Notes under the pieces: generated by a model
Databases searched by the model: none
What the model was told of the DNA's origin: nothing
What the model saw: only the letters and a program-made list of their open reading frames with translations
NCBI GenBank assembly: GCA_045863235.1
Contig: BTUM01000003.1
Span: 96,001 to 160,000 of the forward strand
Source: Candidatus Xenobia bacterium
GTDB lineage: Bacteria > Vulcanimicrobiota > Xenobia > Xenobiales > QWHO01
Reading direction: 5' to 3'
DNA length: 64,000 nucleotides
Shown: one piece after another, positions 8,636 through 47,735 of the stretch
Position numbering within the stretch: position 1 is the first letter of the stretch
Layout of the letters: every line of letters starts with the position of its first letter
Translations under genes and position numbers: made by a program

Positions 8636-8980
8636 CTAGCTCTCGCGCAGGATGAGCCGCACCATGCCCACCCCGGTGCCCAGGATGGCGCCCCCGATTC
8701 CACCGTAAATCCCGGCCGGCAGGCTGGCCAGCAGGCCGGCTCCCACCGCGCCGCCCAGCGAAAGGCCGGCAGCTCCGGCCACCAGGCCGGCGCCGATGCC
8801 TACCGCCGCGCCCAGCCCGATGCCGCCGATGGCAGCGCCGCACGCGGTGTGCTTGAAGATGAAGCGCAGATCGTCCTGACCGCTCTCAAAGGAATCGCCC
8901 GAGGACTGCGAACGCGGGGCCGGCGATTGGGCCGATGCGGGCCGGAAGTTACTCTGGTAGGACAGGCTCTGAATCTGCAT
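8636..8980 (-). CDS. Small glycine-zipper membrane protein
   Basis: AAGGAG SD; Ser/Pro-rich N-terminus followed by a long GxxxG array. Confidence 0.75.
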   Translation of the reverse strand: MQIQSLSYQSNFRPASAQSPAPRSQSSGDSFESGQDDLRFIFKHTACGAAIGGIGLGAAVGIGAGLVAGAAGLSLGGAVGAGLLASLPAGIYGGIGGAILGTGVGMVRLILRES

Positions 8981-23278: not shown

Positions 23279-23365
23279 GGCGCCGCGCGTTGCCGCGGCG
23301 CCGCTCAACGGATTGTCTACACTCCCGCGCGTTCCAGTCCTGAACAGGTCAACGCGCGGGAGTGT
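23274..23365. repeat. Double-hairpin intergenic element, copy 1
   Basis: GGCGCCGCG/CGCGGCGCC stem, then ACACTCCCGCGCGTT-17nt-AACGCGCGGGAGTGT; direct-repeat copy at 25575..25684. Confidence 0.9.
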
Positions 23366-23394: not shown

Positions 23395-25419
23395 TCAGGG
23401 CGTCTTCGTTCTCAAGACGACCCCGCCCACCCGCAGTTGGCCCTCCTGCACCTCGAGCGCGCTGGCCGTTCCGGCCGAGCGCAGCAGGTCGTCCGGGCTG
23501 CGGCCCAGGGCCAGCGACTCCAGAGCCGAGCGCAGGGCGGCCGGGAAGGCATCCCCCGGGTAGGCCTGCTTGAGCTCGGTGAAAACTTCCGTGGCGCGCT
23601 CCTGGTGACCGTCCGGGGTCAGGTGCTCGAGCAAGAGCAGGAAGTCTTTGAGGTCTTGCTCGGTCTTGACCTGGGCGAAGACGGCCCGGGCCTGGGACGC
23701 CTGGCGGCTGGGCACCAGGCCCTCCACCAGCTTCAGGTAGCGCTCGGCGGCAGGGGCGGCCGCCTCCCCCGGGCCGGCGCCCGAGACCAGGGCGGCCAGA
23801 TCTGCTTCCGGCTTGACCCCTTCGTAACGACCCAGGCGCTCCACGGCCTGGCACAGGACGGCGGCATCCCAGCCCCGCAGCTCGGCCACCGTCATGGCCG
23901 GCACGTGCTCGGTGCCCCCGTTGAGGAGGGCCAGGTCGGCCACCTTCTTGTAGGCCGACAAGGTGCGCTCCAGGTCGTGCTCGGCCAGAAGCTTGTAGTC
24001 GCGCTCGACCGAGTAGGTCGAAATGGAGAAGCCGTCCAGCTTCTCGCTGGCCGCCAGGCGGGTCAGCAGTTCGACCCGACCGGCCACCTCGCTGGCATTC
24101 ATGGGCTTGTCCAGCAGGGCCAGCAGAGTGCGCGCGTCGCGCGCACCGGCGCGGCGCGCCAGCGTCTGGAAGTGTCGGCTGCGCTCGGGCAGAGGCAGAG
24201 CCCACAGCCCCTGGCTGTGCTTGGAGCTGTCCAGGAACTCCAGGCTCTCCGGGGCTTCGCTCTGGAAGCAACCCACCAGCTCGATGAGGGTGTCCACGCG
24301 ATCGGTCTTCTTCTGATCCAGAAGCTTGCCGAACTGGGCTGCCGCGAACTGGCCTGGCTGACCATTGGAGAGCGAGCGGGCGTGGGGAATCGAGGCCTCC
24401 ACCAGGCGCATCAGGTCTTTGACGTCGCAATCCGGACGCTGGGCCGTGGCCAGCACGCTGGCGGCATCCGTCCCGCTCAGCCGACCTGACTTGACCAGCG
24501 GAACCAGGATACGGTCAGCCAGCTCGCAGGCTGGCCGGGCCCTCTCCAAAGCCCCCTGAACCGCCTCGGCGCTGGCCTCATTCAAGCTCGCCACGGGGAT
24601 CTTCTGGTAGAAGAGGTTGACCTTGTTTCTGCCATGGAGCGCGTTGTAGGTCGCCTCCGCATCCTCGACCCAACCCTGCGCCTGCAGGTCGCGCAGCGAC
24701 TGGCCAAAATCGGCGTCGCTGAGCGAGCGCGGATCGTGGGTCACGTGGAAGAAGTCCGCCTTCTGGTAGTGGTCGGGCTTGTGGTTCCAGCCCCCCAGCC
24801 GGGTGGGCCCCTTCAGCTCGGTGCTGCGATAGCTCGCGGAGTGAGCCGCTTCGAAGGCCTCCAGGCGCGAGAGCTTCTTCTTGTCCTCGACCACCTCGTA
24901 GCCGTGGTCATACAGGTTGCGCAGGCTGTTCTCGGTGGGCCCGGTGGGATCGGCCCTGAAGTAGAGCGTGTCCAGGGCGGCCAGGGTGGCGATCGAGCGG
25001 ATCTTTGTCGGGCTCGACTCGCCCGGAGGCTGGCAGAGCAGGTTGTCGATCTGACGAGGGTTGGCCGTCACTTTGTCCAGGGCCTCGCCGGGCGTCAGAT
25101 CCTGGTAAGCGCTTCCGTTCCACTGGCGGCCCAACCAGCTGCGCTCGGCCAGAAACTTGCCCCCCTCGGCCTGCACCTGCTGAAGCTGGGCCAGCAGCCC
25201 CTTGCGCTGCTCGGCCGAGAGCACCACCCCGGTCGGCCCTGGAGTCTGCCTGGCCGAAAGAAATCCGGCCGTCGCCAGCGAGCTCCACAGCCAGGCCCTC
25301 GAGCTGGATCCGGTGCCGGACAGGCTGACCTGATCGCCGCTGGCGGGGCTGCTGGCCGTCGGCACGGCCGCCCGGGGGCGGCTGAAAGGCACGCAGTGAC
25401 TCAGAGGGGTGACCCGCAT
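23395..25419 (-). CDS. Large orphan helical protein with C-terminal VGGV tag
   Basis: 674-aa ORF; Ser/Pro-rich N-terminus with GDQVSLS; ends LEVQEGQLRVGGVVLRTKTP. Confidence 0.8.
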   Translation of the reverse strand: MRVTPLSHCVPFSRPRAAVPTASSPASGDQVSLSGTGSSSRAWLWSSLATAGFLSARQTPGPTGVVLSAEQRKGLLAQLQQVQAEGGKFLAERSWLGRQWNGSAYQDLTPGEALDKVTANPRQIDNLLCQPPGESSPTKIRSIATLAALDTLYFRADPTGPTENSLRNLYDHGYEVVEDKKKLSRLEAFEAAHSASYRSTELKGPTRLGGWNHKPDHYQKADFFHVTHDPRSLSDADFGQSLRDLQAQGWVEDAEATYNALHGRNKVNLFYQKIPVASLNEASAEAVQGALERARPACELADRILVPLVKSGRLSGTDAASVLATAQRPDCDVKDLMRLVEASIPHARSLSNGQPGQFAAAQFGKLLDQKKTDRVDTLIELVGCFQSEAPESLEFLDSSKHSQGLWALPLPERSRHFQTLARRAGARDARTLLALLDKPMNASEVAGRVELLTRLAASEKLDGFSISTYSVERDYKLLAEHDLERTLSAYKKVADLALLNGGTEHVPAMTVAELRGWDAAVLCQAVERLGRYEGVKPEADLAALVSGAGPGEAAAPAAERYLKLVEGLVPSRQASQARAVFAQVKTEQDLKDFLLLLEHLTPDGHQERATEVFTELKQAYPGDAFPAALRSALESLALGRSPDDLLRSAGTASALEVQEGQLRVGGVVLRTKTP

Positions 25420-25459
25420 GGGGCCAGCCTAGTCGCTCATGCTTAAGAATTCCTGATAG
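25420..25459 (-). promoter_or_regulatory. Tandem-heptamer promoter, leaderless
   Basis: Minus strand: CTATCAG-gaat-TCTTAAG-N10-TAGGCT-N6-ATG. Confidence 0.65.
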
Positions 25460-25574
25460 CCTTGCAACGTCGCGGTTCCGGATTGGAAGCCGCCCTGGAG
25501 GATCAGATTGCAGCCACCCGAATCCTCTGGCAGAGTGATGCAAAAGCTCTCAAAGAGGGCTTTTGCATCAGCCT

Positions 25575-25684
25575 GCTAAGGCGCCGCGCGTTGAACACTT
25601 CAGGAATGGGCGCGGCGCCGTTCAGCAGATTGTCTACACTCCCGCGCGTTCCAATTCTGAACAGGTCAACGCGCGGGAGTGTAG
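25575..25684. repeat. Double-hairpin intergenic element, copy 2
   Basis: GGCGCCGCGC-20nt-GCGCGGCGCC, then perfect 17-bp inverted repeat CTACACTCCCGCGCGTT-17nt-AACGCGCGGGAGTGTAG. Confidence 0.9.
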
Positions 25685-25703
25685 GACTCGCAGGAGGCAC
25701 TTC

Positions 25704-25790
25704 ATGCTCAAGCGCCAGGGCCAGCGCGGCAAAACATCCGCCGACAGTCGCATCGGCACCAGGACCCGGAGAGGCGAGAGCGAGCCCTGA
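25704..25790 (+). CDS. Possible 28-aa basic leader peptide/uORF
   Basis: AGGAGG SD 6 nt before ATG; MLKRQGQRGKTSADSRIGTRTRRGESEP; its TGA overlaps the CTG of the next gene. Confidence 0.35.
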   Translation: MLKRQGQRGKTSADSRIGTRTRRGESEP

Positions 25791-27328
25791 GGGCCCATTT
25801 CTGCCCCAGTTGCGGGGCCAGGCTGCGCCGTCCCACCAGCCGAGAGCTGACCTGCGAGTATTGCGAGACCGTGCTCTGGGTGGAACCAGAAGCGATTCAG
25901 GAGGCTCCCCGCCCGCTCGACCCGGAGCCCGAGGCCTATCCCGAGCCGCCCGCGCGGCTCTGGCAGCAGTCCACGCCGCGGGTGGAGGTCTCGCTGATCG
26001 AGCAGGAGGTCCCCGACAGCCCGCCGGAGGCCTTCCTCGCCGAGCCGCTGCCCGACGAGCTGCTGGCCCTCGTCTACCTGCGCCTGGTGGATGACGACAA
26101 CCGCCCGGTGCGGGACTGGCCGCTGCCCCTCGAGCCCGTGCTGGAGAGCCTGCGACTGCATCGCGACCCCGGTCTCGCTGCCAACGCCGGGCTGCAGTGG
26201 TTGTGTGACCAGCCCCGGGGTTTCCCGCACCGACTCGAGATCGTCGTGGCCCTCTTCGACCCCACCCGCGCGTCGCTCCTCAGCTATGGCGCTGGTTGTC
26301 ACGACGCGCTCATCTGGCTCGACTGCGAAAGCGCCAGCACGGTGACCCTGAGCGCTCGGCCGCAGGGCCTGGATCGCAAGGTTCTGCGGGGCCGTGGGGA
26401 GGCGTTCGAGAACTGTCGGGCCGTGCTACTCGGCCCGGGGGACGCGGTCGTGCTGCTCTCGGCTGGAGTCCTGGGACGGCAGGGCGGCTCCAGCGAGGCT
26501 GCCCACGCCGTCTTCGAGGTGCTGCGCGAGGTGAGCGGGGAAGACCCGCTGCGCGTGGTGACGCTCGTCAAGAAGGCCTACTGGGAGCACGGCCGCCGCC
26601 GGGACCCGGCGCTCGCCCCCGTCGGCCCCGTGCGCGTCGCCGCGCTGCAGCCCGTGGCTCCGGCCCTGGCCGCCCTGCCCCCGTCGCGGCTCGTGCAGTT
26701 CGGCACGGCGCGCTTCCAGCTCGACCTCTGGGCCAACCCCCTGGACGAGCTCGAGATCCTGCCCCTGCATGGAGAGCGCTGGGTTCTGGTGTGGCTCTCG
26801 GGGGACGGCCTGGAGATTGCGAACGAGACGTTGAGTACGGTCCGGGAACGGGTGCTCGAGGTCCTGGACCGACGCGACCACGGGGACAACGAGGACCCGC
26901 GCGTGGCCGGGCGACGAGCTCTGGAAGGGCTGAACCTGCGGCTCACCCTGGTGCTCCTCTCCGACCGCTACGGCCGCGCCCACTACTATCGGGCCGGCCT
27001 CCAGCCTCCGATCTACCTCTCCCCGCGGGGCAACGGCACCCGCGGGGGATCCCTGCAGAGCTACGACGAGGGCGGCAGCGCCACGCTCGATCCCGGCGCC
27101 CGGCTGTTCTTTTTGGGTCGGCTTCCCATCGCGCGCGAGGTGCACCATGCCGACGACCTGGCCGAGCAATGGCCGGGGGGCAAGACCTCGCGACTGTACG
27201 CCGGCCTGAGCGAGCACTGGAAGACTCCCCCCGGCGAACAGGCGCTCTCTCGCCTGGCCCAGGCGGCACTGTCGGACCGCCCCGGGGTCGCGCTCGAGGG
27301 CCTCGGGTTGGTCACCGGGAGGCCGTGA
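25787..27328 (+). CDS. Zinc ribbon plus two degenerate SpoIIE/PP2C-like domains (probable CTG start)
   Basis: In-frame extension upstream of GTG 25871 encodes FCPSCGA...TCEYCET; LLGPGDAVVLLSAGV and LDPGARLFFLG resemble SpoIIE LxxGDxLxLxTDG. Confidence 0.65.
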   Translation: MRAHFCPSCGARLRRPTSRELTCEYCETVLWVEPEAIQEAPRPLDPEPEAYPEPPARLWQQSTPRVEVSLIEQEVPDSPPEAFLAEPLPDELLALVYLRLVDDDNRPVRDWPLPLEPVLESLRLHRDPGLAANAGLQWLCDQPRGFPHRLEIVVALFDPTRASLLSYGAGCHDALIWLDCESASTVTLSARPQGLDRKVLRGRGEAFENCRAVLLGPGDAVVLLSAGVLGRQGGSSEAAHAVFEVLREVSGEDPLRVVTLVKKAYWEHGRRRDPALAPVGPVRVAALQPVAPALAALPPSRLVQFGTARFQLDLWANPLDELEILPLHGERWVLVWLSGDGLEIANETLSTVRERVLEVLDRRDHGDNEDPRVAGRRALEGLNLRLTLVLLSDRYGRAHYYRAGLQPPIYLSPRGNGTRGGSLQSYDEGGSATLDPGARLFFLGRLPIAREVHHADDLAEQWPGGKTSRLYAGLSEHWKTPPGEQALSRLAQAALSDRPGVALEGLGLVTGRP

Positions 27329-27378
27329 GCTCCGTCCATGTCCGTACGGGCCCTGACCCGAGCACGCCCTCTGAGCTG

Positions 27379-29997
27379 TCAGAACCCCGGCCCGAGCGGA
27401 CGCACCGGGTACTCCGGATCGTTGGTGGCCAGCGCGATCCCGTTCTTGTAGGACGTTTCCCACTTGATGCTGCGCGTGGCGGGCTGGTACAGGCCAGCGA
27501 TGCCACTCTTATAGGAAGTTCGCCACTGCATCCCGGCCTGAGTGGGATCGTAAACTCCCGCCACGCCGTTCTGGTAGGACGTCTGCCACTCAACCTGGCC
27601 GGTGGACGGGTTGAAAGCCGCCCCTACGCCATTCTTGTAGGACGTTTGCCACTCCACCGTCCCGGTCTCGGGCACGAACACGCCCCCGACCCCGTTCTTG
27701 TAAGAGGTCTTCTCCTCGAACTCTCCGCTGATCGGGTTGTAGACCACCGCGATGCCGTTCATATAGGCTGTCTTCCGCTCCAGGCGGACCTGCTCGCCGG
27801 GCTCAGGGGGCGGCCCGAGCTGGAGCGCGGGAGTGATCCGGGGCGCCACCGGCCTGGTTGCCGAAGGTTCTGCGGGGGGGGAGTGGGCAGTCCCGGCGTT
27901 GCGCTTGCCCACCCGCACTCCGGCCACCACCAGATGGGTGGGAGTCTCGGCGATGGCGGCCACGGGCCGCTCCTCGCTGACGGCCGAGAGAATCGGGTCA
28001 TCGAGCAGCACGGCCAGTCCGTCCAGGTCGCCCGAGCCACGCACCACGGCTCCCAGCTTGCCGGGCGTCTGCTCGAGCGCGTGGTGCAGATTGGCGCGCC
28101 ACTGGGGACCGGCCCAGCTGCGAGCGGCCAGGGACACGGTCTCGAGCACGGGACGAAGCCCGCTGGAGCCCTCGGCCGTCAGACAGCGCAGCGCACCCAG
28201 GGCCAGGGCCGCCTGGCTCCAGGTGGCATTGGGCCCATCCACCGTGGTCAGCCGCAGCAGCACGGGGGCGGCCGGGTGGTCCATGGCCTTCAGCCCGGCC
28301 CGCGCCAGCCACAGCTTCTCGTTGATGTCGGGGGTAGCGCGAGCCATCATCAGGGCCACCTGGGCCGTGCGCCGGATGGGGTCAGCGGGAGCCTGCTCGA
28401 GCGCCCGGCAGCCGGCCAGCACCACGGCCGCCTGGTTGGCGGCCTGAGGCCAGGGCTGGCTGCGGACCGCCTCCAGCAGCGGGTCGTCCGAGCTGACCAG
28501 GGCCACCACCTCGGCAGGAGGCAGGAGCGGGCTCAGGTTCTCAAGCAGGGTGATAGGGTCTTCCAGGTGCTGCAGGCCGACCCGGAGGACCTCGGGATCG
28601 CTCACCCTGCCCAGCACCGTCAGGGCCGGGGAGGCCTCGGCCGCGGACAGGGCGGCCACCAGCCGCTCGGGCGGGAGGTGCTCGCTCAGATCTCGGGCCG
28701 CCTGGGCGGGCGAGAAGGGCTGGTCGAGCTGGGCCGCCGCCGCCCGGTAGACCGCTGCCTGCGGCTCGGCCTGGACCAGCCGCGTCACCGCCTGAGGGGG
28801 GCTCTGCTCCAGCATCCACTGGCCCAGCCGGACGGCATCCTCATCCGAGAGCGGGGTCTTGCCCAGCAGCTCGGCGGCCCGGCTTGCATGCGGCTGATCG
28901 GTGGTTGAGAGAGCCTGCAGAGCCAGGTTGGCGCGTCCTTCGAGCTCGGGGACCTGGTCGAGGAACTCGCGCGTGGCGGGCGTGGCCAGTTGGCGCGCCA
29001 GCGCCTCGCTCTCGGAGGGGGCAAGCAGGGGGTGGATCTTCTCCAGCAGCGCTCTGGGCTCGAGCTCGACATGGTCGAGCCCGGCCTGCAGGGCCGGAAG
29101 CTGGGAGACCTGACCCAGCAGCGTCAGGGTGGGATTCTCCGGCTCCACCGCCGCCAGGGCCTCCACCAGCTGACGCTCGGACACCCGGTGCTTGAGCTCT
29201 CGGCTGGCCCCGCTCAGGGTGAACTCGGGCTGCAGCAAGAGGTGGCCCGCGGCCTCATAGGGCGGCTCCGGCAAGGCCTTGAACAGCCTGCTGACGGGAT
29301 GAGCGTCCGGGAGCTGCTCGAGCATCCACGACCCCAGCACCTGCACGTCCTTGGGGGGCAGTTCGTCCAGAAGGTGCGCCAACGGGGGCTTCGACTCGAG
29401 GTTGGTCAGGCACCACCGCTCGGCCGTAAAGCGGCCTTCCCGGGTGAGCTCCAGGCCATCGAGGGAGCGGAGGAAGCTCTTCAGCTCGGGGTCGGCCAGC
29501 TCGTTCAGGGCCGGGCGCACGGGCAGATCGTGCAGCGCCCGGCTCCACTCGGCGCCCGTGCGGGGCTCGGGACGAGCGGCCTGGTGCAGCAGCCAGTCCG
29601 CCGAGGGGGCCGACGCCTTGAGGGCAGGATGAGCCGGCAGCACCTGCTCCAGCCCTCTCTCCACCTGACCGCGCAGGGCCGGGTCGGACAGGTCGCGCAG
29701 CGCCAGAGCCAGCCCCGCCAACCCCGTCAGGCTGGCACTCGTGTCCAGAGCCAGCGCCTGCAGCGAGCGCCGCATCACTGCCAGGCGGCTCGTCGGCGTG
29801 GCTTCGGGGGGCGATGCCACCCGGGCCATGGCCAGCATCACCTGCTTCTCTGAAGGGGTCTCCATCTGCTCGAGCCGGGTCAGGCAATCCTCGCCGGCCT
29901 GGAGCTGCAGCTCTTGCTTCTTCCAAAATTGCAGCCGCCACGAGCTGCACGCCTGCAGCCCGCGGTTGGCTTCCTGGGAGAATCGGCTCAGCTCCAC
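27379..29997 (-). CDS. Large helical-repeat protein with internal VAGV tag and C-terminal 21-aa repeat domain
   Basis: 872-aa ORF; duplicated LG.WMLEQ segment; six T[SA]YxxG[IV] repeats. Confidence 0.85.
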   Translation of the reverse strand: MELSRFSQEANRGLQACSSWRLQFWKKQELQLQAGEDCLTRLEQMETPSEKQVMLAMARVASPPEATPTSRLAVMRRSLQALALDTSASLTGLAGLALALRDLSDPALRGQVERGLEQVLPAHPALKASAPSADWLLHQAARPEPRTGAEWSRALHDLPVRPALNELADPELKSFLRSLDGLELTREGRFTAERWCLTNLESKPPLAHLLDELPPKDVQVLGSWMLEQLPDAHPVSRLFKALPEPPYEAAGHLLLQPEFTLSGASRELKHRVSERQLVEALAAVEPENPTLTLLGQVSQLPALQAGLDHVELEPRALLEKIHPLLAPSESEALARQLATPATREFLDQVPELEGRANLALQALSTTDQPHASRAAELLGKTPLSDEDAVRLGQWMLEQSPPQAVTRLVQAEPQAAVYRAAAAQLDQPFSPAQAARDLSEHLPPERLVAALSAAEASPALTVLGRVSDPEVLRVGLQHLEDPITLLENLSPLLPPAEVVALVSSDDPLLEAVRSQPWPQAANQAAVVLAGCRALEQAPADPIRRTAQVALMMARATPDINEKLWLARAGLKAMDHPAAPVLLRLTTVDGPNATWSQAALALGALRCLTAEGSSGLRPVLETVSLAARSWAGPQWRANLHHALEQTPGKLGAVVRGSGDLDGLAVLLDDPILSAVSEERPVAAIAETPTHLVVAGVRVGKRNAGTAHSPPAEPSATRPVAPRITPALQLGPPPEPGEQVRLERKTAYMNGIAVVYNPISGEFEEKTSYKNGVGGVFVPETGTVEWQTSYKNGVGAAFNPSTGQVEWQTSYQNGVAGVYDPTQAGMQWRTSYKSGIAGLYQPATRSIKWETSYKNGIALATNDPEYPVRPLGPGF

Positions 29998-30037
29998 GAG
30001 ACCAGGTTAACCCGGGGGGCTGAAAGATTGTTGACCC
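29998..30037 (-). promoter_or_regulatory. Tandem-heptamer promoter, leaderless
   Basis: Minus strand: GGGTCAA-caat-CTTTCAG-N10-TAACCT-N6-GTG. Confidence 0.65.
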
Positions 30038-30082
30038 GTCGTGCTAAGAATAGGGGGCAACTTTGAACAGGGGTGAAAACCG

Positions 30083-31585
30083 TTGATCGCTTTGAGAAGG
30101 CTCCTCCCCATGCTGTTCCTGGCTTTGCTGCTGGGATGCCAGCAGACGCCTGGACCCACGCCCGCCCCCACCGCGAGCAAGCTCGTGCCCAGCACCACTG
30201 CGAGCCCCGCAGCCTCTCCCACGGTCAGTGCCGAGCCGGTGGACGTCTTGATCGTCGGAGCCGGTCTCGCCGGACTGACCACGGCCTACCAGCTCAAGCA
30301 GGCGGGCATCAGCTTCCGGGTGCTCGAGCTGACTCCCCGGGTAGGTGGACGCGCCCGCACCGCCAGCTACCCTGACGAGACCCAGGCCGAGGTGGGCCTG
30401 GCCGAATTCTGGACCGGCAATCCCGCCATCGATCTGGCCAAAGAGCTGAATGTCGAGCTCGAGCTCGTCGAGCCCGGCATGTCCAGTTTCATGGTGGACG
30501 GAAAGCTCTACCCCTTCACCGACTACGACTCCAACCAGGACTTCATCAAAGCCACTCTGGGCAAGGACTACCCGGAATACCAGGCCTGGGACAAGCGGAT
30601 GGAGGGTCTGGTGCACCAGGTCGAATCCGGCAAGATCCCGCCCGAGCTCATGAAGCTCAAAGACGAATCCTTCGAGGACTGGCTGGAGAAGGAGAAGCTC
30701 TCCCCCTTCGCCCGCAAGCTGGTGAAAGCCGTCATCGAGCCCGAGATCGGAACCAGCATCAAGAGGATCAGCGCCCTGGACGGCATCGCCGAGTGGCATC
30801 TCTTCGTCGGCAAAGGCGCCACGCCACAGCACTGCGTGGGCGGCAACGAGAAGCTCCCCCTGGCCCTGGCCAAAGCCATCGGCGAGGAGAACATCTCCCT
30901 CAACACCCAGGTCACCAACGTCATCGACGGCCCCGACGGCGTCGAAGTGCGGGCCGTGGACACCGCCAACTTCGACGGTAAGGTCTTCAAAGCAAAGTAC
31001 GTCGTGCTGACCGTCCCGCTCTATCGGTTGTTCGAGATCCAGTTTGTGCCGCGGCTAGACGACAAGGTGTATCAGGCCATTCACACCCAGTCGTGGGGCG
31101 CCTACTTCACCGCCCACTGCTTGCTGGATAGGGCCGCCGAGAAGTACTGGACCGTGGACGGCAACATCGTGCTGCCCATCCTGAGCGGGGGGGCGCTGGG
31201 GTGCATCTACCCCGGCCACGACGTCGGTCCCAAGGACTCGGTGATGCTCAACTTCCTGGTCACCGGGCCGCACGCGGAGGAGTTCAACAGCCGCACCAAG
31301 TCGCTCGACGACGTGCAAACCGCGATGGAGACGGCCATGGAGGAGACCTGGCCGGGGAGCAAGGCGATGATCAAGCGGTGGACGTTCTATCGCTATCACC
31401 CGCGGGCCATCGCTTCGTGGCCGGTGGGGCGGTCGAGGTTTGATGAGCTTTCCGAGGGGCTGCGCAAGCCGCACGGGCGCATCTACTTCGGGGGAGATTT
31501 CACGGAGAGCAGCCACTCGGATGGGGCCATGCGATCAGCCATTCGAATGAGTGGGCAGATCAAAGCCGTGCTGGGGAAGAAGTAG
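30083..31585 (+). CDS. Flavin monoamine oxidase family lipoprotein
   Basis: Lipobox LLLGC; VLIVGAGLAGL and RVGGR FAD motifs; C-terminal GRIYFGGDFT. Confidence 0.88.
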   Translation: MIALRRLLPMLFLALLLGCQQTPGPTPAPTASKLVPSTTASPAASPTVSAEPVDVLIVGAGLAGLTTAYQLKQAGISFRVLELTPRVGGRARTASYPDETQAEVGLAEFWTGNPAIDLAKELNVELELVEPGMSSFMVDGKLYPFTDYDSNQDFIKATLGKDYPEYQAWDKRMEGLVHQVESGKIPPELMKLKDESFEDWLEKEKLSPFARKLVKAVIEPEIGTSIKRISALDGIAEWHLFVGKGATPQHCVGGNEKLPLALAKAIGEENISLNTQVTNVIDGPDGVEVRAVDTANFDGKVFKAKYVVLTVPLYRLFEIQFVPRLDDKVYQAIHTQSWGAYFTAHCLLDRAAEKYWTVDGNIVLPILSGGALGCIYPGHDVGPKDSVMLNFLVTGPHAEEFNSRTKSLDDVQTAMETAMEETWPGSKAMIKRWTFYRYHPRAIASWPVGRSRFDELSEGLRKPHGRIYFGGDFTESSHSDGAMRSAIRMSGQIKAVLGKK

Positions 31586-31760
31586 CGAAGAACTTGTTCC
31601 GAGCGGCCCCAAGATCAAGGGCCCGACTTCTGCGCGCAGCGATCATCAGGTCAAGAATTCTGGAAAGACCTCTGCGTGTTGCGCGAGCACAACATGCTGG
31701 GCGTCGCGCAGCCGGAAAACCGTGTCAAGGGGTTCCCGACCGGGAGTTTCCCTTGATTGC
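31586..31760. repeat. Intergenic repeat family shared with 40318..40497 and 11545..11566
   Basis: AGAACTTGTTCCGAGCGGCCC (about 31589) and TGGGCGTCGCGCAGCCGGAAAACCGTGTCAAGGGGTTCC (31698..31736). Confidence 0.8.
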
Positions 31761-31882
31761 CTGGAAATTCGATCGCTCAGCAGGGTTTTCGTCCTCGAGG
31801 CGAAAACATGCACTCCTGGTTGTCCGTCGTTTCATTTTGTGACCGTCGATAGCCTCATTCTCATTCAACTCAAGGAGGCTAT

Positions 31883-32263
31883 ATGACGTATAGCGACAAG
31901 ACCCTGACCTGTTCTGATTGCCAACAGTCCTTCACGTTCACTGCCGGCGAGCAGGAGTTTCACGCATCCAAAGGCTTCACCAACCAGCCGGGCCGTTGCC
32001 CGGATTGCCGCGCCGCCCGCAAGCGGAGCGGCGGTGGCGACCGCGGTGGGTATTCCGACAGCCGCGGTGGCGGTGGTTACGGTGGCGGTGGAGCCCGCGA
32101 AATGCACCCGGCCACCTGCGCCGAGTGTGGCAAGCAGACCGAGGTTCCCTTCGTTCCCACCGGCGCCCGCCCGGTTTACTGCCGCGACTGCTTCTCCCGT
32201 CAGGGCGGCGGTGGCGGTGGGGGTGGCCGCCGTGGCGGCGGTGGCGGTCGCGACCGCTACTAA
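31883..32263 (+). CDS. Zinc-ribbon / CxxC-x17-CxxC domain protein with RGG-rich linkers
   Basis: DKTLTCSDC...FTAGEQEF...P.RCPDCR and CAECG..TEVPF.P...RPVYCRDCF; AAGGAGG SD. Confidence 0.92.
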   Translation: MTYSDKTLTCSDCQQSFTFTAGEQEFHASKGFTNQPGRCPDCRAARKRSGGGDRGGYSDSRGGGGYGGGGAREMHPATCAECGKQTEVPFVPTGARPVYCRDCFSRQGGGGGGGGRRGGGGGRDRY

Positions 32264-32345
32264 GAGAGGGAAGGCCTGAGGCGCCCTACGCGCCTATCAA
32301 TCTGGACTGTAGGGTCTCATTCCCGGCCCAGAGAACAGACCCCCC

Positions 32346-35141: not shown

Positions 35142-35188
35142 GGACGCGTGCGGAAACTCTCCCATCCCTGGCCGGTTTCACCTCCATC

Positions 35189-36151
35189 ATGAAGCTCCGC
35201 GCTCTGCTCGTGATCGTGCTCGCCCTGGCGGTGGCCCGGGCGGCACCGCCCTACGACCCGCTCCGGCTCCCGGCCGGCGAGACGACCACCCTCGAGCTCG
35301 AAGTGGCCGGAGAGCGCGAGCTGCCCCTGTTGATCTACCTGCCTTTCGATCGCTCACCGGCCCCGGTGGTGCTGTTCAGTCACGGTCTGGGAGGCTCGCG
35401 ATATGGCAGCAGCTTCCTGGGCAAGCACTGGTCCGGACGAGGCTACGTGGTGGTCTATCTCCAGCATCCCGGCAGCGATGACTCGGTCTGGAAGGAGCAG
35501 CAGAGGGGTCGACGTCTGGCGGCCATGAAGAGCGCAGCCAGCGCCGAGAACCTGCGCCTGCGGATCGCGGACGTGCCGCGCGTGCTCGATCAGCTCACCG
35601 CCTGGAGCCAGGAGCCCGGCCACCCACTATCCGGTCGGCTGGACCTGACTCGGATCGGCATGTCCGGCCACTCCTTTGGAGCCCTCACCACCCAGGCCGT
35701 GGGCGGACAGAGCTTTCCCCTGCTGGGAGCGAGGGGGACGGACAGCCGCATCCGGGCCGCCCTGCCGATGAGCCCGAGCGCCCCCCGAGCCGGCGATGTC
35801 CAGAAGGCCTTCGGACAGGTCGCGATCCCCTGGATGCTGATGACCGGAACCGAGGACACCTCGCGCATCGTCAACCTCACCGTCGAAGAGCGGCTGGCCG
35901 TCTACCCTGCCCTGCCGCCGGGCGGGAAGTACGAGCTGGTGCTGAACCGGGCGAAGCACTCAGCCTTCACCAACCGTCCTCTGCCAGGCGACGGCGGAGG
36001 GCGCAATCCCAACCACCACCGCTCCATTCTGGCCCTGAGCACGGCCTTCTGGGACGCCTACCTCAAGGAAGATCCAGCCGCTCGCGAGTGGCTGGACGGG
36101 GCGGGTCCGCGGGATGTGCTCGATCCCGAGGACCGCTGGCAGCACAAGTAA
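35189..36151 (+). CDS. Secreted alpha/beta hydrolase (dienelactone hydrolase/PAF-AH-like)
   Basis: FSHGLGG, nucleophile GHSFG, GTED and AKHSAF; signal peptide; alternative start at 35138. Confidence 0.9.
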   Translation: MKLRALLVIVLALAVARAAPPYDPLRLPAGETTTLELEVAGERELPLLIYLPFDRSPAPVVLFSHGLGGSRYGSSFLGKHWSGRGYVVVYLQHPGSDDSVWKEQQRGRRLAAMKSAASAENLRLRIADVPRVLDQLTAWSQEPGHPLSGRLDLTRIGMSGHSFGALTTQAVGGQSFPLLGARGTDSRIRAALPMSPSAPRAGDVQKAFGQVAIPWMLMTGTEDTSRIVNLTVEERLAVYPALPPGGKYELVLNRAKHSAFTNRPLPGDGGGRNPNHHRSILALSTAFWDAYLKEDPAAREWLDGAGPRDVLDPEDRWQHK

Positions 36152-36155
36152 TGCC

Positions 36156-36194
36156 CTTCCAAATTCTTTGAGGGTCAGCCCCTACCATTCCCCC
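36156..36194 (+). promoter_or_regulatory. Tandem-heptamer promoter, leaderless
   Basis: CTTCCAA-att-CTTTGAG-N10-TACCAT-N6-ATG. Confidence 0.65.
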
Positions 36195-37964
36195 ATGGTG
36201 GTGCACTCCTCGACCTGTGCCCTCTTCGTCCGGCCCACCCGGGCGACGGCGCCGCCTGAGCGCGATCCTGTGAGTGAAGCCCTGGCTGAGGTGGATGCCT
36301 CGGCGCGCAACGAGAAGCTCCTCAAACTGTGCTCTGAAGCCCGCACCAACCCTGATCTCTCGGCATGCCTGGGACGCCGTCAAGCCGAGCTGTGGAGCCT
36401 TCCCCTCAGCAGCGACTACGCTTGCATCGACCTGGTGGAACGTCTGGCCCCGCACTGTCCTCCTCCCGAGAGCCTGGACTGGCTCTTCCAGAAATATGGT
36501 CAACGGTTAGCGGTGGAGGGCCCGAGTATCGGAGCAGCCCGCCGCTCCCTGGAGCAAATCCTGACCAATCGCCCCGACTTCGTGGACGAAGCCGCTGCCC
36601 GGCTCCTCGAGCCCTCGCCGGAAACAGGCTTCACGCCCGCCCAGCTGGTCTGTCTGAAGGACCTGGTCAGCGATCGCGGCTGGCGACCGGACGTCGAGCA
36701 GAAGGGCAGGCTACTGGAGCGCCTGGACACCGTCGACCTTCTGGGCAGAGAAGGCCAGGATCTTCTCAAGGTGCTGGTGGAGCTGAAAAAGGCTTGCCCT
36801 GAAGAGGTCCCGCCCGGTCTGGGTCGCGAGCTGCTCGAGAGGCTTCTGGCTGAGCCCGAACCGCCTCTTTACACCGTGGCAGGCGGCCCAAATGTGGGCT
36901 TCCTGTCTCAGCCCATCTACCAGATGGCCTTCCCGGACGAGAAGCTGGAGGGCGAGTTGCTGTCGCAGGTGGGTCAGGGAAGCCAGAATGCTCTGCTCGT
37001 GCTGGCGGGCTCGATGACTCTGACCGGAGGAGCCGCACGACTGGGCCGCCAGCTCGAGGCCGAGTTCGGACGAGCCCACGAGCCCGCCTGGATGGACCAG
37101 GTCTTGCTGCACGTGTTGGACCATTGGCTCGAGCAGCCCTGTGCTACCGCAGACGACGCTCTCGAGCCCCACCTGGCGCTGGGCAGGCGCTATGAGGCGC
37201 TGGCTGCCCGCGAGGAGCCCCTCTCGCCCCGCTGCAAACCCGCCCCGGTGAGCGTGGCGCCCGAGTGGCTGGCCGGGATGTCCGACTCGATGGACACGGT
37301 GGAGTCGCAGGCCCGGCTGGTGGTCGCCTTCCGGGCCGCCGGGCAAGATCCGGCACTGGCCGGAGCGCTGCTCGGCGAGCTGACCGAGTGGCTCAACCAG
37401 AATCGGTCTCCTGCCTGGACGGAAGCAGCCGCGGCCTTCCGCGGCCTCAAGGACCTCCAGGTGCGAGAGCAACTGCGCCAGGCGACCGACCTGCGCGAGC
37501 TGCTGACCGCCTTCAGCCCGGACGCCACCTGGATGAATGCGGCCCAGGAGCGCTACCCGGCCGAATTGGCCCATCTCAAGCCCCTGCTCAAGGGATTGTC
37601 CCAAGAAGAGCAAGTTGCTCTCGCCCACTCTCTGGCCCACCGCAAGGAGCTGGAAGGCGACCTCGGATGCCTGGCCAGCCTGGCCAATCTGCCAGCCTCC
37701 GAGCGCCCGGAGGCCATCGCGCAGGTCCTGCGCGCACCCGCCTTCTTCACGCGGCTCGACCAGATCGCTCCTCTGCGCGTCAGCTTGCCGGCCCACCAGG
37801 AGCTGTGCCGCCGGATCGAAAGCGGGATGGAGCCCGAGGTCGCCTATCAGCAGGTGGCCGCTCCCCTGCTGCTGGACTGCGTGGCAGGCGACTGCTGCAA
37901 GGCGGTGGGAACGGTGGACGGCTACCTGGTGGTCGGGGGCTCGCGGCTGCGCAACCGCTGCTGA
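36195..37964 (+). CDS. Large orphan helical protein with C-terminal VGG tag
   Basis: Leu/Glu/Ala-rich ORF ending VGTVDGYLVVGGSRLRNRC. Confidence 0.8.
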   Translation: MVVHSSTCALFVRPTRATAPPERDPVSEALAEVDASARNEKLLKLCSEARTNPDLSACLGRRQAELWSLPLSSDYACIDLVERLAPHCPPPESLDWLFQKYGQRLAVEGPSIGAARRSLEQILTNRPDFVDEAAARLLEPSPETGFTPAQLVCLKDLVSDRGWRPDVEQKGRLLERLDTVDLLGREGQDLLKVLVELKKACPEEVPPGLGRELLERLLAEPEPPLYTVAGGPNVGFLSQPIYQMAFPDEKLEGELLSQVGQGSQNALLVLAGSMTLTGGAARLGRQLEAEFGRAHEPAWMDQVLLHVLDHWLEQPCATADDALEPHLALGRRYEALAAREEPLSPRCKPAPVSVAPEWLAGMSDSMDTVESQARLVVAFRAAGQDPALAGALLGELTEWLNQNRSPAWTEAAAAFRGLKDLQVREQLRQATDLRELLTAFSPDATWMNAAQERYPAELAHLKPLLKGLSQEEQVALAHSLAHRKELEGDLGCLASLANLPASERPEAIAQVLRAPAFFTRLDQIAPLRVSLPAHQELCRRIESGMEPEVAYQQVAAPLLLDCVAGDCCKAVGTVDGYLVVGGSRLRNRC

Positions 37965-38106
37965 ACGCTTTTCGACGCCAGACAGGGAACCTGACCCCCC
38001 GAGGGAGTATAATAGGCCCTCACGACGCTCTCAAGTAGGCATCCCCAGCTGAGTCTGGAGTGCCTGCCAGTCGTGGGGGGCACAAAATCTGACTTAGGGA
38101 AGTTGA

Positions 38107-40296
<2,190 letters not shown>

Positions 40297-40317
40297 AGGC
40301 CCAGCCCCACCAGAGGT

Positions 40318-40497
40318 TGGGCGTCGCGCAGCCGGAAAACCCGTGTCAAGGGGGTTCCGGCTGCGCTTTCATCTGGCAGAGTCAGCAAAGCACGCTTCGA
40401 GCGGGCCGGCGAGGTCTTGCTGGGGAAATGCGGGTGGTGAGCGTTTCCTCTCTCCGCGCGCCGTAGCTTGCCGCGCAGAACTTGTTCTGAGCTGCCC
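40318..40497. repeat. Intergenic repeat/hairpin shared with 31586..31760
   Basis: 12-bp stem GCGCAGCCGGAA (40326) / TTCCGGCTGCGC (40355); AGAACTTGTTCTGAGCTGCCC near 40477. Confidence 0.8.
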
Positions 40498-40521
40498 GCC
40501 CGAGGGCATTTTAGCAGCCGA

Positions 40522-42048
40522 TCAGGAGCGACGGCGCGCGTCCAGGAAGTGCCATTCGGAAGACTCACCAAACTGGAGCCGGTCCCCATGGCGCAGGCGC
40601 GTCTCGGACTCGACCACGATCCCGTTGACCAGAGTCAGGCCGCCGCCCAGTTTGCGCACGCAGTAGTTTCCCTCCGAGCGCACCACCAGGCAATGGCGCC
40701 GAGACACGGTCTCGTCGGCAAGCACCAGGTCGCAGTCAGGAGCCCGCCCGACCAGAGTCTGAGAGCGGTCGAGAGAAAACCGCTGGTCCCCGCCCGCGAG
40801 CTCGAGCCAGTAGCGGCTGGCAGCCGGAAGCGGGGTGGGCGCAGGAGGAGTAGCGGCTGAACGCGAGCGGCGTTCGCAAACTTCGAACCGCATCAGGGTC
40901 TGTCCCACCTCCACCAGCTCCCCGCCCTCCAGAGCCAGCTTGCCCACGACGGGCAGTCCGTTGACCAGCACCCCACCGCTCAGCAACAAACGGCCCTCCT
41001 GTCCTTCGAGCCAGAAGCAACGGCAGGGGATCGAGCTGTCATCCAGATCGATGTCGTTGTCGTGAGGTCCCGGTCCCCCTACTGCCAGTGGGCGACCGGC
41101 CGAGAGCAGGGCCGCGAACAAGGGCACGGTCTTGCCCGCCTCGGGCCCCTCCAGGAAGTGCAGAAGGTAGGCGGGGCGAACCTGGGCCGAGCGGGTTCGA
41201 GACTGGTCCAGCCGGCTGGGGCGAAGATCCCGAAGAGCAAGCCGCGGATTGCCCAGGAGCCAGAAGGCCAGATCGGTGCGCCAGGAATCGCGAAACTTTT
41301 CCCGAGAACCGCCCACGGCCTCACCCAGCTCGGCGCCCTCGCGCATCTGGGCCAGGATGTCGCTCACGAAAGCCGCGCAGCACTCCCAGGGCACCTCCCA
41401 CTGGGAAGCGAGGATGGCATCGACGCCGAGATTGGACAGCCCCCGGGTCAATGCTTCCGAGCCGGGCCCGTGCAAGACCACCAGCCGGGGCACGTAGTGT
41501 CTTCCCACCGAGCGAAAGGGCTCAAAGCTGCCCGAGGCCAGGACCACGGCATACTCCTCTGAGGAGAGCACGGAGCGGAACGCGGCGGCCGGGTGCCTGG
41601 AAACCTGAAAGTGGGCGTCCAGGCCGGCCGGAGCCGGGTCGGCGCTATCGGCCACCAGGGCCGCCAGGGCGGCCCCCTCGACTCGCGGCACGACCTCTTC
41701 CCCGGCCCGCCGCACCCTTCGCGCCGTCGAGCGACGGTAAGCCAGGGGAACCCCCGCGATGCGGGCCAGCTCCCAGGGCGTCTCTCCAGCCAGCCAGCAG
41801 TTCACCGGCTCCTTACATAGCACCTGAGTGAGATTGGCGGGAAAGCAGTTCCCCAGCGAGTCGCCCAGTCGGTCCAGAGCCTCGGAGAATCCGCCGGCAG
41901 CCTGCTGAAGGGCGACCAGCGACTCCTTCTGGCTGCGCATCTCGACCGGCAGACGCCGGGCTTCAAAATGGCTCTCCTGGCCGTCGCGAAGGAGGCGCCA
42001 ACGAATCGAATCGGGCAGGGGCTCCTCGAAGAACAGGTCGAGGCTCAT
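40522..42048 (-). CDS. Degenerate CHAT-like domain plus two FHA domains
   Basis: PWEL, ASQWEV and LLGNP CHAT-like motifs; canonical FHA VGRAPDCD...VSRRHC...TLVNG; the first FHA lacks the GR/SRxH residues. Confidence 0.8.
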   Translation of the reverse strand: MSLDLFFEEPLPDSIRWRLLRDGQESHFEARRLPVEMRSQKESLVALQQAAGGFSEALDRLGDSLGNCFPANLTQVLCKEPVNCWLAGETPWELARIAGVPLAYRRSTARRVRRAGEEVVPRVEGAALAALVADSADPAPAGLDAHFQVSRHPAAAFRSVLSSEEYAVVLASGSFEPFRSVGRHYVPRLVVLHGPGSEALTRGLSNLGVDAILASQWEVPWECCAAFVSDILAQMREGAELGEAVGGSREKFRDSWRTDLAFWLLGNPRLALRDLRPSRLDQSRTRSAQVRPAYLLHFLEGPEAGKTVPLFAALLSAGRPLAVGGPGPHDNDIDLDDSSIPCRCFWLEGQEGRLLLSGGVLVNGLPVVGKLALEGGELVEVGQTLMRFEVCERRSRSAATPPAPTPLPAASRYWLELAGGDQRFSLDRSQTLVGRAPDCDLVLADETVSRRHCLVVRSEGNYCVRKLGGGLTLVNGIVVESETRLRHGDRLQFGESSEWHFLDARRRS

Positions 42049-42088
42049 CGCGAGCAACTTTGCTGGAGTCTCCGGGGAACCCTCCAGG

Positions 42089-43825
42089 TCAGCCCTTGCG
42101 CTTGAGGCGCACCGAGCCCACCTGCACTCCCCGGGGGGTCAGCTCCACGCGCTGGGCCGGGTCACTCCTGCCGGGCACCAGGTAGTCGAAGGTGGCCCGC
42201 TGGCGGGCCTGATCGGCCGGCACGCCCTGCTCGATCAGACGCTCCACTTCGGTGCAGGCGCGCAGGATGGCCTCATGTTCGGCCTCCCCGCCCAGGCGGG
42301 CGCTGAACTCGCGGAACTGGTCGCCGCCATAATAGGCGGCGTATCGCCTGGCAGGGTCGGCGGAGTAGTGCGCGGCCCAATTGTCATCGGGCAAGCGCTG
42401 GCTCCACAGCTCGTGCGCATCAGGCACCTGACAGGCCAGCAGGCGCTCCACCAGCGGTCGGGCCTGCTCGACAGGCGTGCCAGCGAGCTGCTCTTTCAGC
42501 TGGGCTATCTCCTGGCGGCGAGCCTCGGAGGTGAGAGCCTGGACGGGCCCGCTCAAGGCGTGCGCCAGGTAAGGCTGGAGGGCCTGCGTGACGCCGGTCG
42601 AGCCCAGCATGTGAGCAAGCCAGAGAGCCTCCTGGGCCGAGCGAGGCAGGTCGGAGAGGTCGGCCTTGCTGGTCCGGGCCGCCTGGACGAACTCCTCGAG
42701 CAGCTCGCTCGCCTGCTGAGCCTTCTCCTCGGGGGTGAGCTGGGGGCCCAGACGCTCGAGCACGGGACGGGTCTGGAACTCCAGGCTACTGGGGATGACC
42801 CGGTGCACCACGCTGCGCAGATACTCTCGGGCCGCCTGGATCTTCCCGGTCACGTCTGGAGCGTCGCCCATGCGGCGCATCTGGGCGTTCTGGTGCTCGC
42901 TGCGGAACGTGTCCACCAGGCTGTCCAGGGCGGCGTTGTCGTGGCGCCTCTCCAGCTCTTGCATGGCGATGGGGCGAATCAGCTCGCGGTGGCGGCTCAC
43001 CGAGCCCAGCGCCACCAGGGCCCGCTGGTCGGCCGGCGAGAGTTTCTGGATGTCGCCCTGGTAGTTGCTCTGGAGCCTTTCAGCCAGACTTTGCGAGAAC
43101 TCCTGATCGAGCAGGGCGGCATAAGCCTGGCTGGTCACCCCCACGGCCATCACGTCCCCGGCGTACAGTCGGCGCAACTCGGGCTCGAGCAGAAGGCGGT
43201 CGAACAGGTTCTGGCGCAGGCCGTCCAGCCCGTTGGGGATCCGCCCCAGCGCCTCCAGGCCCTGCCAGAACTCGGGCCCCGGCTTGCCGGGCTGAAGCAG
43301 CCGGGCGGCCAGCCAGGGACGATGTCGGGGGGCGGCGGTCTGGCTGAGCACGCGCCAGTCCTCCAGGCTCTGATTGTGGTTCCGCGACAGGATGCAATCG
43401 GCCACGCGCTCGCCCCACTCGGGATGCTGCTCGAGCTGCTCGAGCACCACCCGGGCGCCGCCCTCGTTGGGAAGCACCTCCAGGACCAGCAACTCGGGGC
43501 TGACCGTTTCGGGAAAGCGCTCCAGCAGGGAGCGGTAGAACTCCGCCTGGCCCTCGCGCGCTCCGTGACGGCTGGTGGTGCTCAACAGCGCCTCTTTGTG
43601 AGGGGCGAAGTGCCGGCTCACCTGGGGCCTCTGGCTGGCCAGGATGGCACTCAGCGCCTGAAAGGCCCGGCGGTCACCCGCCTGGTTGGTCAACTCGAAG
43701 GCCACCTGATCGGCCAGGCCCTGGTCAGTCCAGGTCAGCCGGTCAAACGTCTCAGCCGCCTGCTCGCGCTTGAGCGAGCGGCACAGAAACCTGGCCCGAG
43801 GACTGCTGAGCTGCACGGAGTCCAT
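42089..43825 (-). CDS. Large orphan helical protein with C-terminal VGSV tag
   Basis: ORF from ATG 43825 (MDSVQLSS) ending VELTPRGVQVGSVRLKRKG. Confidence 0.8.
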   Translation of the reverse strand: MDSVQLSSPRARFLCRSLKREQAAETFDRLTWTDQGLADQVAFELTNQAGDRRAFQALSAILASQRPQVSRHFAPHKEALLSTTSRHGAREGQAEFYRSLLERFPETVSPELLVLEVLPNEGGARVVLEQLEQHPEWGERVADCILSRNHNQSLEDWRVLSQTAAPRHRPWLAARLLQPGKPGPEFWQGLEALGRIPNGLDGLRQNLFDRLLLEPELRRLYAGDVMAVGVTSQAYAALLDQEFSQSLAERLQSNYQGDIQKLSPADQRALVALGSVSRHRELIRPIAMQELERRHDNAALDSLVDTFRSEHQNAQMRRMGDAPDVTGKIQAAREYLRSVVHRVIPSSLEFQTRPVLERLGPQLTPEEKAQQASELLEEFVQAARTSKADLSDLPRSAQEALWLAHMLGSTGVTQALQPYLAHALSGPVQALTSEARRQEIAQLKEQLAGTPVEQARPLVERLLACQVPDAHELWSQRLPDDNWAAHYSADPARRYAAYYGGDQFREFSARLGGEAEHEAILRACTEVERLIEQGVPADQARQRATFDYLVPGRSDPAQRVELTPRGVQVGSVRLKRKG

Positions 43826-43869
43826 AGCTTCCCGCAGCGTACTCGGACGCGATGAAAGGGGGTTGAAAG
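43826..43869 (-). promoter_or_regulatory. Tandem-heptamer promoter
   Basis: Minus strand: CTTTCAA-cccc-CTTTCAT-N10-TACGCT-N10-ATG. Confidence 0.7.
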
Positions 43870-47694: not shown

Positions 47695-47735
47695 CTTTCA
47701 GGTTTCTTTTCAGCCACTTACGGCATACTCCAGGC
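47695..47735 (+). promoter_or_regulatory. Tandem-heptamer promoter, leaderless
   Basis: CTTTCAG-gtttc-TTTTCAG-N10-CATACT-N6-GTG. Confidence 0.7.

Follow-up and report, generated by a model that had tools for sequence, protein, structure and literature searches.

An 18-residue tag on proteins of a Candidatus Xenobia bacterium: a putative docking module for cargo of a flagellum-derived export machine

The window analyzed here, a 64,000-nt stretch of contig BTUM01000003.1 (positions 96,001 to 160,000) from a Candidatus Xenobia bacterium of the phylum Vulcanimicrobiota, contains four genes whose otherwise dissimilar products share an 18-residue motif, hereafter called the tag, and all four genes carry the same type of promoter (Table 1). 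A previous sequence-only reading of this DNA had pointed out the four 18-mers; all were found in frame, and three of them lie near the C terminus as noted there. None of the four proteins matched a family in Pfam or NCBIfam. The N terminus of the 674-aa protein is rich in Ser, Pro, and Ala and contains a D-x-V-x-L-S motif. In the 872-aa protein, the six repeats (27433–27779, minus strand, 63-nt spacing) are common to a four-member family without a Pfam match, and the tag stays internal in all three homologues checked, which come from two other species and share 40–46% identity. Tag copy 4 is identical at 13 of 18 positions in a homologue that shows 47% identity elsewhere. The start of the 589-aa gene had been placed at 36114 but is most likely at 36195, 6 nt past its promoter.

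Table 1. Tagged genes, tag copies, and promoters in the window
Feature	Position	Strand	Remarks
Tagged protein, 674 aa	23395..25419	−	No Pfam match; three direct paralogues in genome
Tag copy 1	23404..23457	−	29.8 bits; 2 residues before stop
Regulon promoter	25426..25458	−	25.7 bits; TTCAG-type direct repeat, 10 nt, TAnnCT; ATG 6 nt downstream, predicted leaderless
Tagged protein, 872 aa	27379..29997	−	Internal tag, then linker, six 21-aa repeats
Tag copy 2, internal	27901..27954	−	30.2 bits; 173 residues before stop
Regulon promoter	30004..30036	−	27.2 bits; GTG start 6 nt downstream
Regulon promoter	36156..36188	+	20.8 bits; ATG 6 nt downstream
Tagged protein, 589 aa	36195..37964	+	No Pfam match; singleton in genome
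Tag copy 3	37905..37958	+	26.1 bits; 1 residue before stop
Tagged protein, 578 aa	42089..43825	−	Belongs to 13-protein passenger family
Tag copy 4	42095..42148	−	31.3 bits; 1 residue before stop
Regulon promoter	43836..43868	−	24.4 bits; ATG 10 nt downstream

The tag motif is real and extends far beyond these four proteins. The genome comprises 8.36 Mb (97.6% complete, a figure on which all genome absences below rest), and 7,431 genes were called with our own simple gene finder. The pattern first proposed, [VLI]-x6-[LV]-x-V-[GA]-[GS]-[VS]-x-[LV]-x-x-[KR], matched 105 times in 108,809 six-frame open reading frames (ORFs), and 86 of these matches end at most 9 residues from the stop codon, which bears out the C-terminal bias suggested from the window. 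An iterated profile gave 191 matches of at least 18 bits, of which 175 (92%) lie no more than 15 residues from the stop, another 9 at 16–50 residues, and 7 internally; by position, just 15% of the scanned windows fall within 15 residues of a stop. Two whole-ORF shuffles gave no match at this threshold, and a chance origin was rejected on this ground. At 16 bits or more, 193 ORFs are tagged, and the 191 that lie within called genes amount to 2.6% of the genes of the bacterium, mostly unannotated. A gapped hidden Markov model search yielded only three further weak matches. No family was found in Pfam with 46 tag peptides (E ≤ 1) or in NCBIfam with four (E ≤ 0.1), and no PDB sequence matched (E ≤ 10) with this very short query, in agreement with the original remark that it could not be matched to a named family. 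No description of the tag, its promoter and regulon, or the cargo was found in the published literature. The tag is real and uncatalogued, a putative variant of C-terminal docking tags.

The profile consensus of the tag is [VIL]-x-E-x-x-[GD]-x-[VL]-x-[VI]-G-G-V-R-[VLI]-[RKP]-[RK]-R. Positions 1, 8, 10, 13, and 15 are hydrophobic in 82–100% of the copies, the net charge is −1.0 over positions 1–7 and +2.8 over positions 12–18, and just 9 of the 191 copies contain a K-[KR]-x-[KR] pattern. Upstream lies a Gly/Ser/Pro/Ala linker; the two similar helices reported there are present, but across the family none of the upstream columns is conserved (best, 25% Leu at −11). AlphaFold, supplied with a 46-member alignment, gave a helix, a linker, and three strands (residues 23–26, 29–32, and 35–38) with a predicted local distance difference test score of 80–86 in the strands and a predicted template modeling (TM) score of 0.37. 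The tag is therefore predicted to fold as a three-stranded β-meander with one hydrophobic face, instead of the β-hairpin assumed before. In fold searches with this very short query, the best VIA Z for the 42-residue model was 2.2, and the Atlas search gave TM < 0.5 and no usable feature match. For a possible CsrA-like hairpin, no PDB sequence matched at this query length. A split-domain origin was rejected because the gapped search gave only its three weak extra matches and no complementary partner turned up.

When the tags are masked, the 190 carriers group into 97 families, 76 of which are singletons. The synonymous-codon measure of the tags is close to the genome average (0.466 versus 0.438 expected), and the nucleotide identity between any two tags does not exceed 83%. 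Because synonymous codons vary freely, the constraint acts on the protein, and the tag is a protein module; the same two values rule out a repetitive DNA element, such as a tail derived from a repetitive extragenic palindrome or a miniature inverted-repeat transposable element (MITE). A membrane segment is found near the tag in one of 190 carriers. Tandem copies exist, as do the seven internal ones, and the conservation of internal copies indicates that a free C terminus is not required.

The upstream regions of the tagged genes are enriched in TTCAG words and fit a promoter model composed of TTCAG-N6-TTCAG, 10 nt, TAnnCT, and the start codon. The spacer is 10 nt in 114 of 118 sites, and the start codon follows 6–7 nt later in 94 of 118, a distance that suggests leaderless messages. 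Across the genome, 361 sites score at least 18 bits, compared with 10 in the reversed genome. Because the first matrix had been trained on tagged genes, it was rebuilt from 235 untagged sites; by this second matrix the promoter precedes 123 of 191 tagged and 253 of 7,240 other genes, and by a fixed pattern 96 of 191 and 202 of 7,240. The genes sharing the promoter (the regulon) also include clearly cellular ones, such as transporters and glycosyltransferases. We take the geometry to resemble that of OmpR/PhoB-type boxes; none of the OmpR-like genes of the genome carries a regulon site. A Pho regulon was rejected, with pstS, phoU, and phoA not found in the 8.4-Mb genome using Escherichia coli queries, although a PhoD-like gene and a GDPD gene do carry the promoter. 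A sigma-28 promoter was also rejected, the enriched words being TTCAG repeats with no sigma-28 box; a likeness to the HilA box is possible. Of 36 selected genomes, 21 contain the strict form of the promoter, and its copies are numerous in families f1, f3, and f4 (f and g denote our labels for families and genera of the phylum). Within the window, a further regulon promoter (47697–47729, plus strand) precedes an untagged gene.

By a hydrophobicity proxy, a signal-peptide-like N terminus is found in none of 190 tagged proteins and in 27% of 6,198 background proteins, and in the same proxy analysis Ser, Pro, and Thr together account for 24–27% of the N-terminal residues of tagged proteins versus 17% in the background. 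The start pattern of the leaderless regulon proteins is present in 72% of the tagged (n = 116) and 56% of the untagged members (n = 121) versus 17%. A motif D-x-[VFIL]-x-[LIP]-[SG] near residue 25 occurs in 17% of the tagged and 13% of the untagged regulon proteins versus 1.6%, and a similar stretch is found in a 473-aa protein of the export locus described below and in E. coli FlgM. A Ser/Thr/Pro-rich N terminus, the lack of a signal peptide, and a shared promoter are among the type III substrate features listed in section 3.3.2 of PMC8047123. Of the genes that share this promoter and these N-terminal features, about half are untagged, and the tag is therefore probably not the primary secretion signal.

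The domain content of the cargo differs between the two groups. The 93 tagged proteins scanned (of 191) comprise 16 β-propellers, four InhA-like MAM proteins (two of which also have CUB or F5/8 domains), one with a sub-cut-off DUF885 match, and 72 without any match; no RTX family is among them. No clear enzyme family was assigned to any of these 93, whereas 23 of the 69 leaderless regulon proteins scanned that have no tag received one (Fisher p = 2e-10). The two sets were picked by genomic clustering rather than at random, their E-value limits varied from 0.01 to 0.0001, and the lack of independence among paralogues inflates the test. The enzyme families are peptidases C11, C26, C92, and M48, endonuclease I, amylases, PhoD, GDPD, and acyl- and glycosyltransferases. 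Subthreshold tags were detected in five of the 69 untagged proteins, and none of these five is among the 23 enzymes. The best reading of these data is that the tag is probably a docking module on a non-enzymatic subclass of the cargo, not the primary export signal.

The candidate route of export is encoded on contig C27, where a complete locus contains genes for FlgB/C, FliE/F/G/H/I/J, a transglycosylase, FliK, a short FlgE-like protein, FliM/N/N/O/P/Q/Q/R, FlhB, and FlhA; FlgF/G are encoded on contig C74. FlhA and FliI score above the flagellar cut-offs. Flagellin, FlgK/L, FliD, FlgD, FliS, MotA/B, and CheW were not found in the genome. Judged by its gene content, the machine is a flagellum-derived exporter without flagellin or stators, not a motile flagellum. 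For type III cargo, the export apparatus (FlhA/B, FliP/Q/R/O, FliH/I/J, and FliF/G/M/N), the N-terminal bias, and the promoter were all found. Other known routes lack support. VirD4 (PF02534) and VirB4 (PF03135) were not found in the genome, although the controls matched, and the conserved core of 18 residues is not a domain of ~120 residues with a Gln-rich tail, as expected for a type IV effector signal. A type I C-terminal signal is contradicted by the internal copies, by the lack of RTX families among the 93 proteins, and by the absence of any genome match above the cut-off for the HlyD-type adaptor (TIGR01843). The sheath gene of type VI systems, TssC (PF05943), was not found in the genome, and its control matched. 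Type II, type IX, or sortase-type cargo does not fit the 0 of 190 hydrophobic N termini and the single membrane segment near a tag, both by proxy only; the two clear secretins are from type II/type IV pilus loci, and the cargo of those systems requires signal peptides.

Three identical genes for an 81-aa pilin-like protein lie behind flhA, and this synteny is seen across the phylum. The protein is predicted to form one long helix. Its weak likeness to HrpA pilins (PF09589) comes from Atlas feature scores of 0.90–0.91, with the family on 23–24% of the cluster members, and from a weak HrpA-type Pfam match in one of 20 members (E = 0.042). One gene of the triplet is preceded by a regulon promoter of 22.4 bits. 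Scattered extra copies (C69:19357, C78:33079, C3:179378, and C74:12551) have no regulon promoter. The genome also encodes five stand-alone paralogues of the FlhA cytoplasmic domain away from the export locus (on contigs C80, C1, C3, C106, and C107), one of which begins with a FliG-like segment, and a 40-member, strongly acidic family without signal peptides, with members at C27:53833–54276 (L005:8834–9277) and at 7083–7838 in the window. A member of this acidic family adjoins the export locus in several genomes, and such proteins are candidate secretion chaperones.

Among 150 other genomes of the phylum, ten have at least four tag matches (families f1, f2, f4, f10, and f17) and nine have one or two; all of the former ten carry the pilin-like gene. 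That gene is present in 44 of the 151 genomes; the 81 genomes of family f14 have none. The distant copies that were checked sit at the C terminus, in 11 ORFs with tails of 1–20 residues. In genus g6 an acidic variant of the tag keeps the register and has a G-D turn; two genomes contain 19 and 7 matches, and 23 of 24 fetched loci, four of them seeds, end at most 6 residues from the stop. A basic tail is therefore not required. The proteins of the acidic-tag genome are often more acidic overall, and thus the variant may reflect a proteome-wide shift. Comparison of basic- and acidic-tag genomes for a receptor with reversed charge gave nothing convincing in FlhA, FlhB, or FliH/I/J/M/N/G/F. A strict DNA pattern run over a species-level genome collection gave 91 matches, 24 of which end within 10 residues of a stop; of the other 67, most come from different phyla and resemble chance reading frames. 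The 20 titled near-stop matches without an upstream stop come from four genomes, all with the pilin-like gene at 81–100% identity, and two of the four are titled Vulcanimicrobiota or Eremiobacteraeota. The tag and the pilin-like gene, the latter at 81–100% identity, were found in two genomes titled Burkholderiales; these titles are therefore probably wrong. Most sequencing runs that contain this DNA come from sludge, digesters, and bioreactors. For a related family, PMC9259500 describes diverse secretion systems and predicted predation and does not name cargo signals; PMC11484240 has no passage on secretion.

The arrangement resembles several known systems in part. In XVIPCD, carried by type IV effectors of Xanthomonadales, one C-terminal module is likewise present on unrelated cargo without signal peptides and has a common partner (PMC8740702). 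According to the same source, XVIPCD is ~120 aa long with a Gln-rich tail, is found on toxic enzymes, and binds VirD4, whereas the tag has 18 residues and is on non-enzymes in a genome where VirD4 and VirB4 were not found. Effector regulons of the HrpL/HrpB type are also scattered genes with one promoter motif, Ser/Thr/Pro-rich N termini, and no signal peptide (PMC8047123, section 3.3.2), but in the machine here FlhA and FliI score as flagellar, and rod genes are retained. The type III signals described in that section are N-terminal, and it names no shared C-terminal module on cargo. The non-flagellar type III system of Myxococcales also has an export apparatus derived from the flagellum and has lost motility parts; these systems are without FlgBCDEK, FliE/G, and a needle (PMC3459982). 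By contrast, the system here keeps FlgB/C/F/G and FliE/G/M/N and has a multi-copy pilin-like gene. Neither XVIPCD nor the Myxococcales intermediate fits the present system. The flagellar-type machine of Campylobacter, which has a motile flagellum, reportedly exports non-flagellar proteins by an N-terminal signal, whereas no filament or stator was found here and hundreds of cargo proteins are predicted. In dockerin–cohesin pairs, S-layer homology modules, and the type IX C-terminal domain, a small module tethers or sorts many exported proteins to one partner; those cargoes have Sec signal peptides and are often enzymes. The tag has no sequence match to any of the three in Pfam or NCBIfam.

Here, we propose that the tag is a portable docking module: the cargo would exit via the flagellum-derived type III machine, and the tag would dock its non-enzymatic part on a shared partner. 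We give this reading a probability of roughly 45%. One direct-repeat promoter with about 360 sites lies before two thirds of the tagged genes, some 250 genes without the tag, and one pilin-like gene; it is a sequence signal, by which these genes would be transcribed together. The Ser/Pro/Thr-rich N terminus common to the tagged and untagged regulon would serve as the export signal for the FlhA/FliI machine. Behind its Gly/Ser/Pro linker, the sheet of the tag is predicted to be too small for stability alone and may complete its core on the partner, for which a surface scaffold, the pilin-like filament, and other tags are candidates. β-Propellers, MAM/CUB-domain proteins, and helical proteins would then stay tethered as a binding array, and the untagged proteases, nucleases, phosphatases, and amylases would be released. 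The docking or sorting signal of the sequence-only reading survives in part: a portable, β-rich docking or sorting module on exported-looking carriers is retained, and the hairpin, the basic tail, and the free C terminus are given up. The basic end is a property of the present genome (+2.8) but not of g6, where the acidic variant ends proteins. As for a C-terminal secretion signal, the position of 175 of 191 copies fits, and the internal copies and the untagged half of the regulon do not.

The tag may instead be recognized in the cytoplasm, where a multi-cargo chaperone or coupling component would feed a subclass of cargo to the export gate or set the order of secretion. This explanation, which we regard as unlikely though worth serious attention, is the nearest to the earlier idea and to the XVIPCD–VirD4 pair; it accords with the 92% of copies that are C-terminal, propellers and proteins of 1,300–1,800 aa may need help in staying unfolded, and the five FlhA-domain paralogues and the acidic family are candidate receptors. 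It leaves the exclusion of enzymes unexplained, however, and untagged regulon members have the same N-terminal features. According to section 3.3.2 of PMC8047123, type III signals and the sites for chaperones are N-terminal; no charge reversal is seen in the core export proteins of the acidic-tag genome, and a search for CesT was empty, though its control gave no match either.

Self-association after export, in which the tag would oligomerize its passenger like a foldon, is improbable. An amphipathic meander with an acidic start and a basic end could pair with itself, and many passengers resemble coiled coils or propeller heads by eye, but the all-acidic g6 variant loses this internal charge complement, and tandem and internal copies fit poorly to a single foldon at the end of a chain. 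The charge of the tag, together with its hydrophobic face, would also suit binding to negatively charged membranes or to wall polymers, be they of the cell itself or of a prey, or a nuclear localization signal; with the acidic variant at the same register and position in two genomes and so few K-[KR]-x-[KR] patterns, we consider this very improbable. Marginally less credible still is a cytoplasmic location of the proteins, with the tag serving as a degron or as a module that directs them to a site within the cell. The absence of signal peptides by proxy and the cellular genes in the regulon are compatible with this possibility, but MAM, CUB, and F5/8 domains are typical of extracellular proteins, the N termini are type III-like, and tails of 0–29 residues and internal copies misfit a C-terminal degron.

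Several points weigh against the docking proposal as well. The link of the tag and cargo to the type III machine is correlative: the export genes have no strong promoter (best, 14.3 bits before flgB), two pilin-like copies of the triplet are without one, and the HrpA likeness of the pilin-like protein is a lead only. Many genomes that have the pilin-like gene lack the tag, the gene being present in 44 and any tag match in 20 of 151, and genera g4 and g5 of family f3 have the promoter with almost no tag matches. On the cargo side, enzymes are possibly hidden among the 72 of 93 tagged proteins without a Pfam match, propeller families can be catalytic, and there is the one DUF885 match; the proxy nature of the signal-peptide test and the composition of the enzyme comparison, both given above, count on the same side.

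A broader picture, which we regard as doubtful, is that Vulcanimicrobiota made the flagellum into a protein-delivery machine independently of the known injectisomes, with an Hrp-like pilin, and that the present lineage serves it with about 360 cargo promoters and assembles about 190 binding proteins on one scaffold as a cellulosome-like display array. The cargo would carry a two-part address, namely an N-terminal export signal on all of it and the C-terminal β-meander. The tag and the promoter provide a candidate cargo list for an uncharacterized flagellum-derived secretion machine that is widespread in an uncultured phylum. If export is true, this machine would represent a living intermediate between flagellum and injectisome whose substrates are known, and an 18-residue portable docking tag could serve protein display.

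Some further features were observed. The untagged genes at 8639–8980 (minus strand) and 50775–52736 (plus strand) of the window encode the same type of N terminus as the regulon proteins. RNA-library contigs from four studies overlap a single tagged gene in part, together with the genes for the pilin and the tip; DNA carry-over is possible and contig depth gives no ranking of genes, and they were therefore not used as support. A small Cys-rich, Gly/Arg-rich protein is encoded at 31883–32263 (plus strand), and single contigs in two metatranscriptomes cover it. A 72-nt palindromic repeat, probably a MITE-like element, has copies at 23294–23365 and 25611–25682, on both sides of the first tagged gene, and 54 matches of at least 50 nt in the genome.

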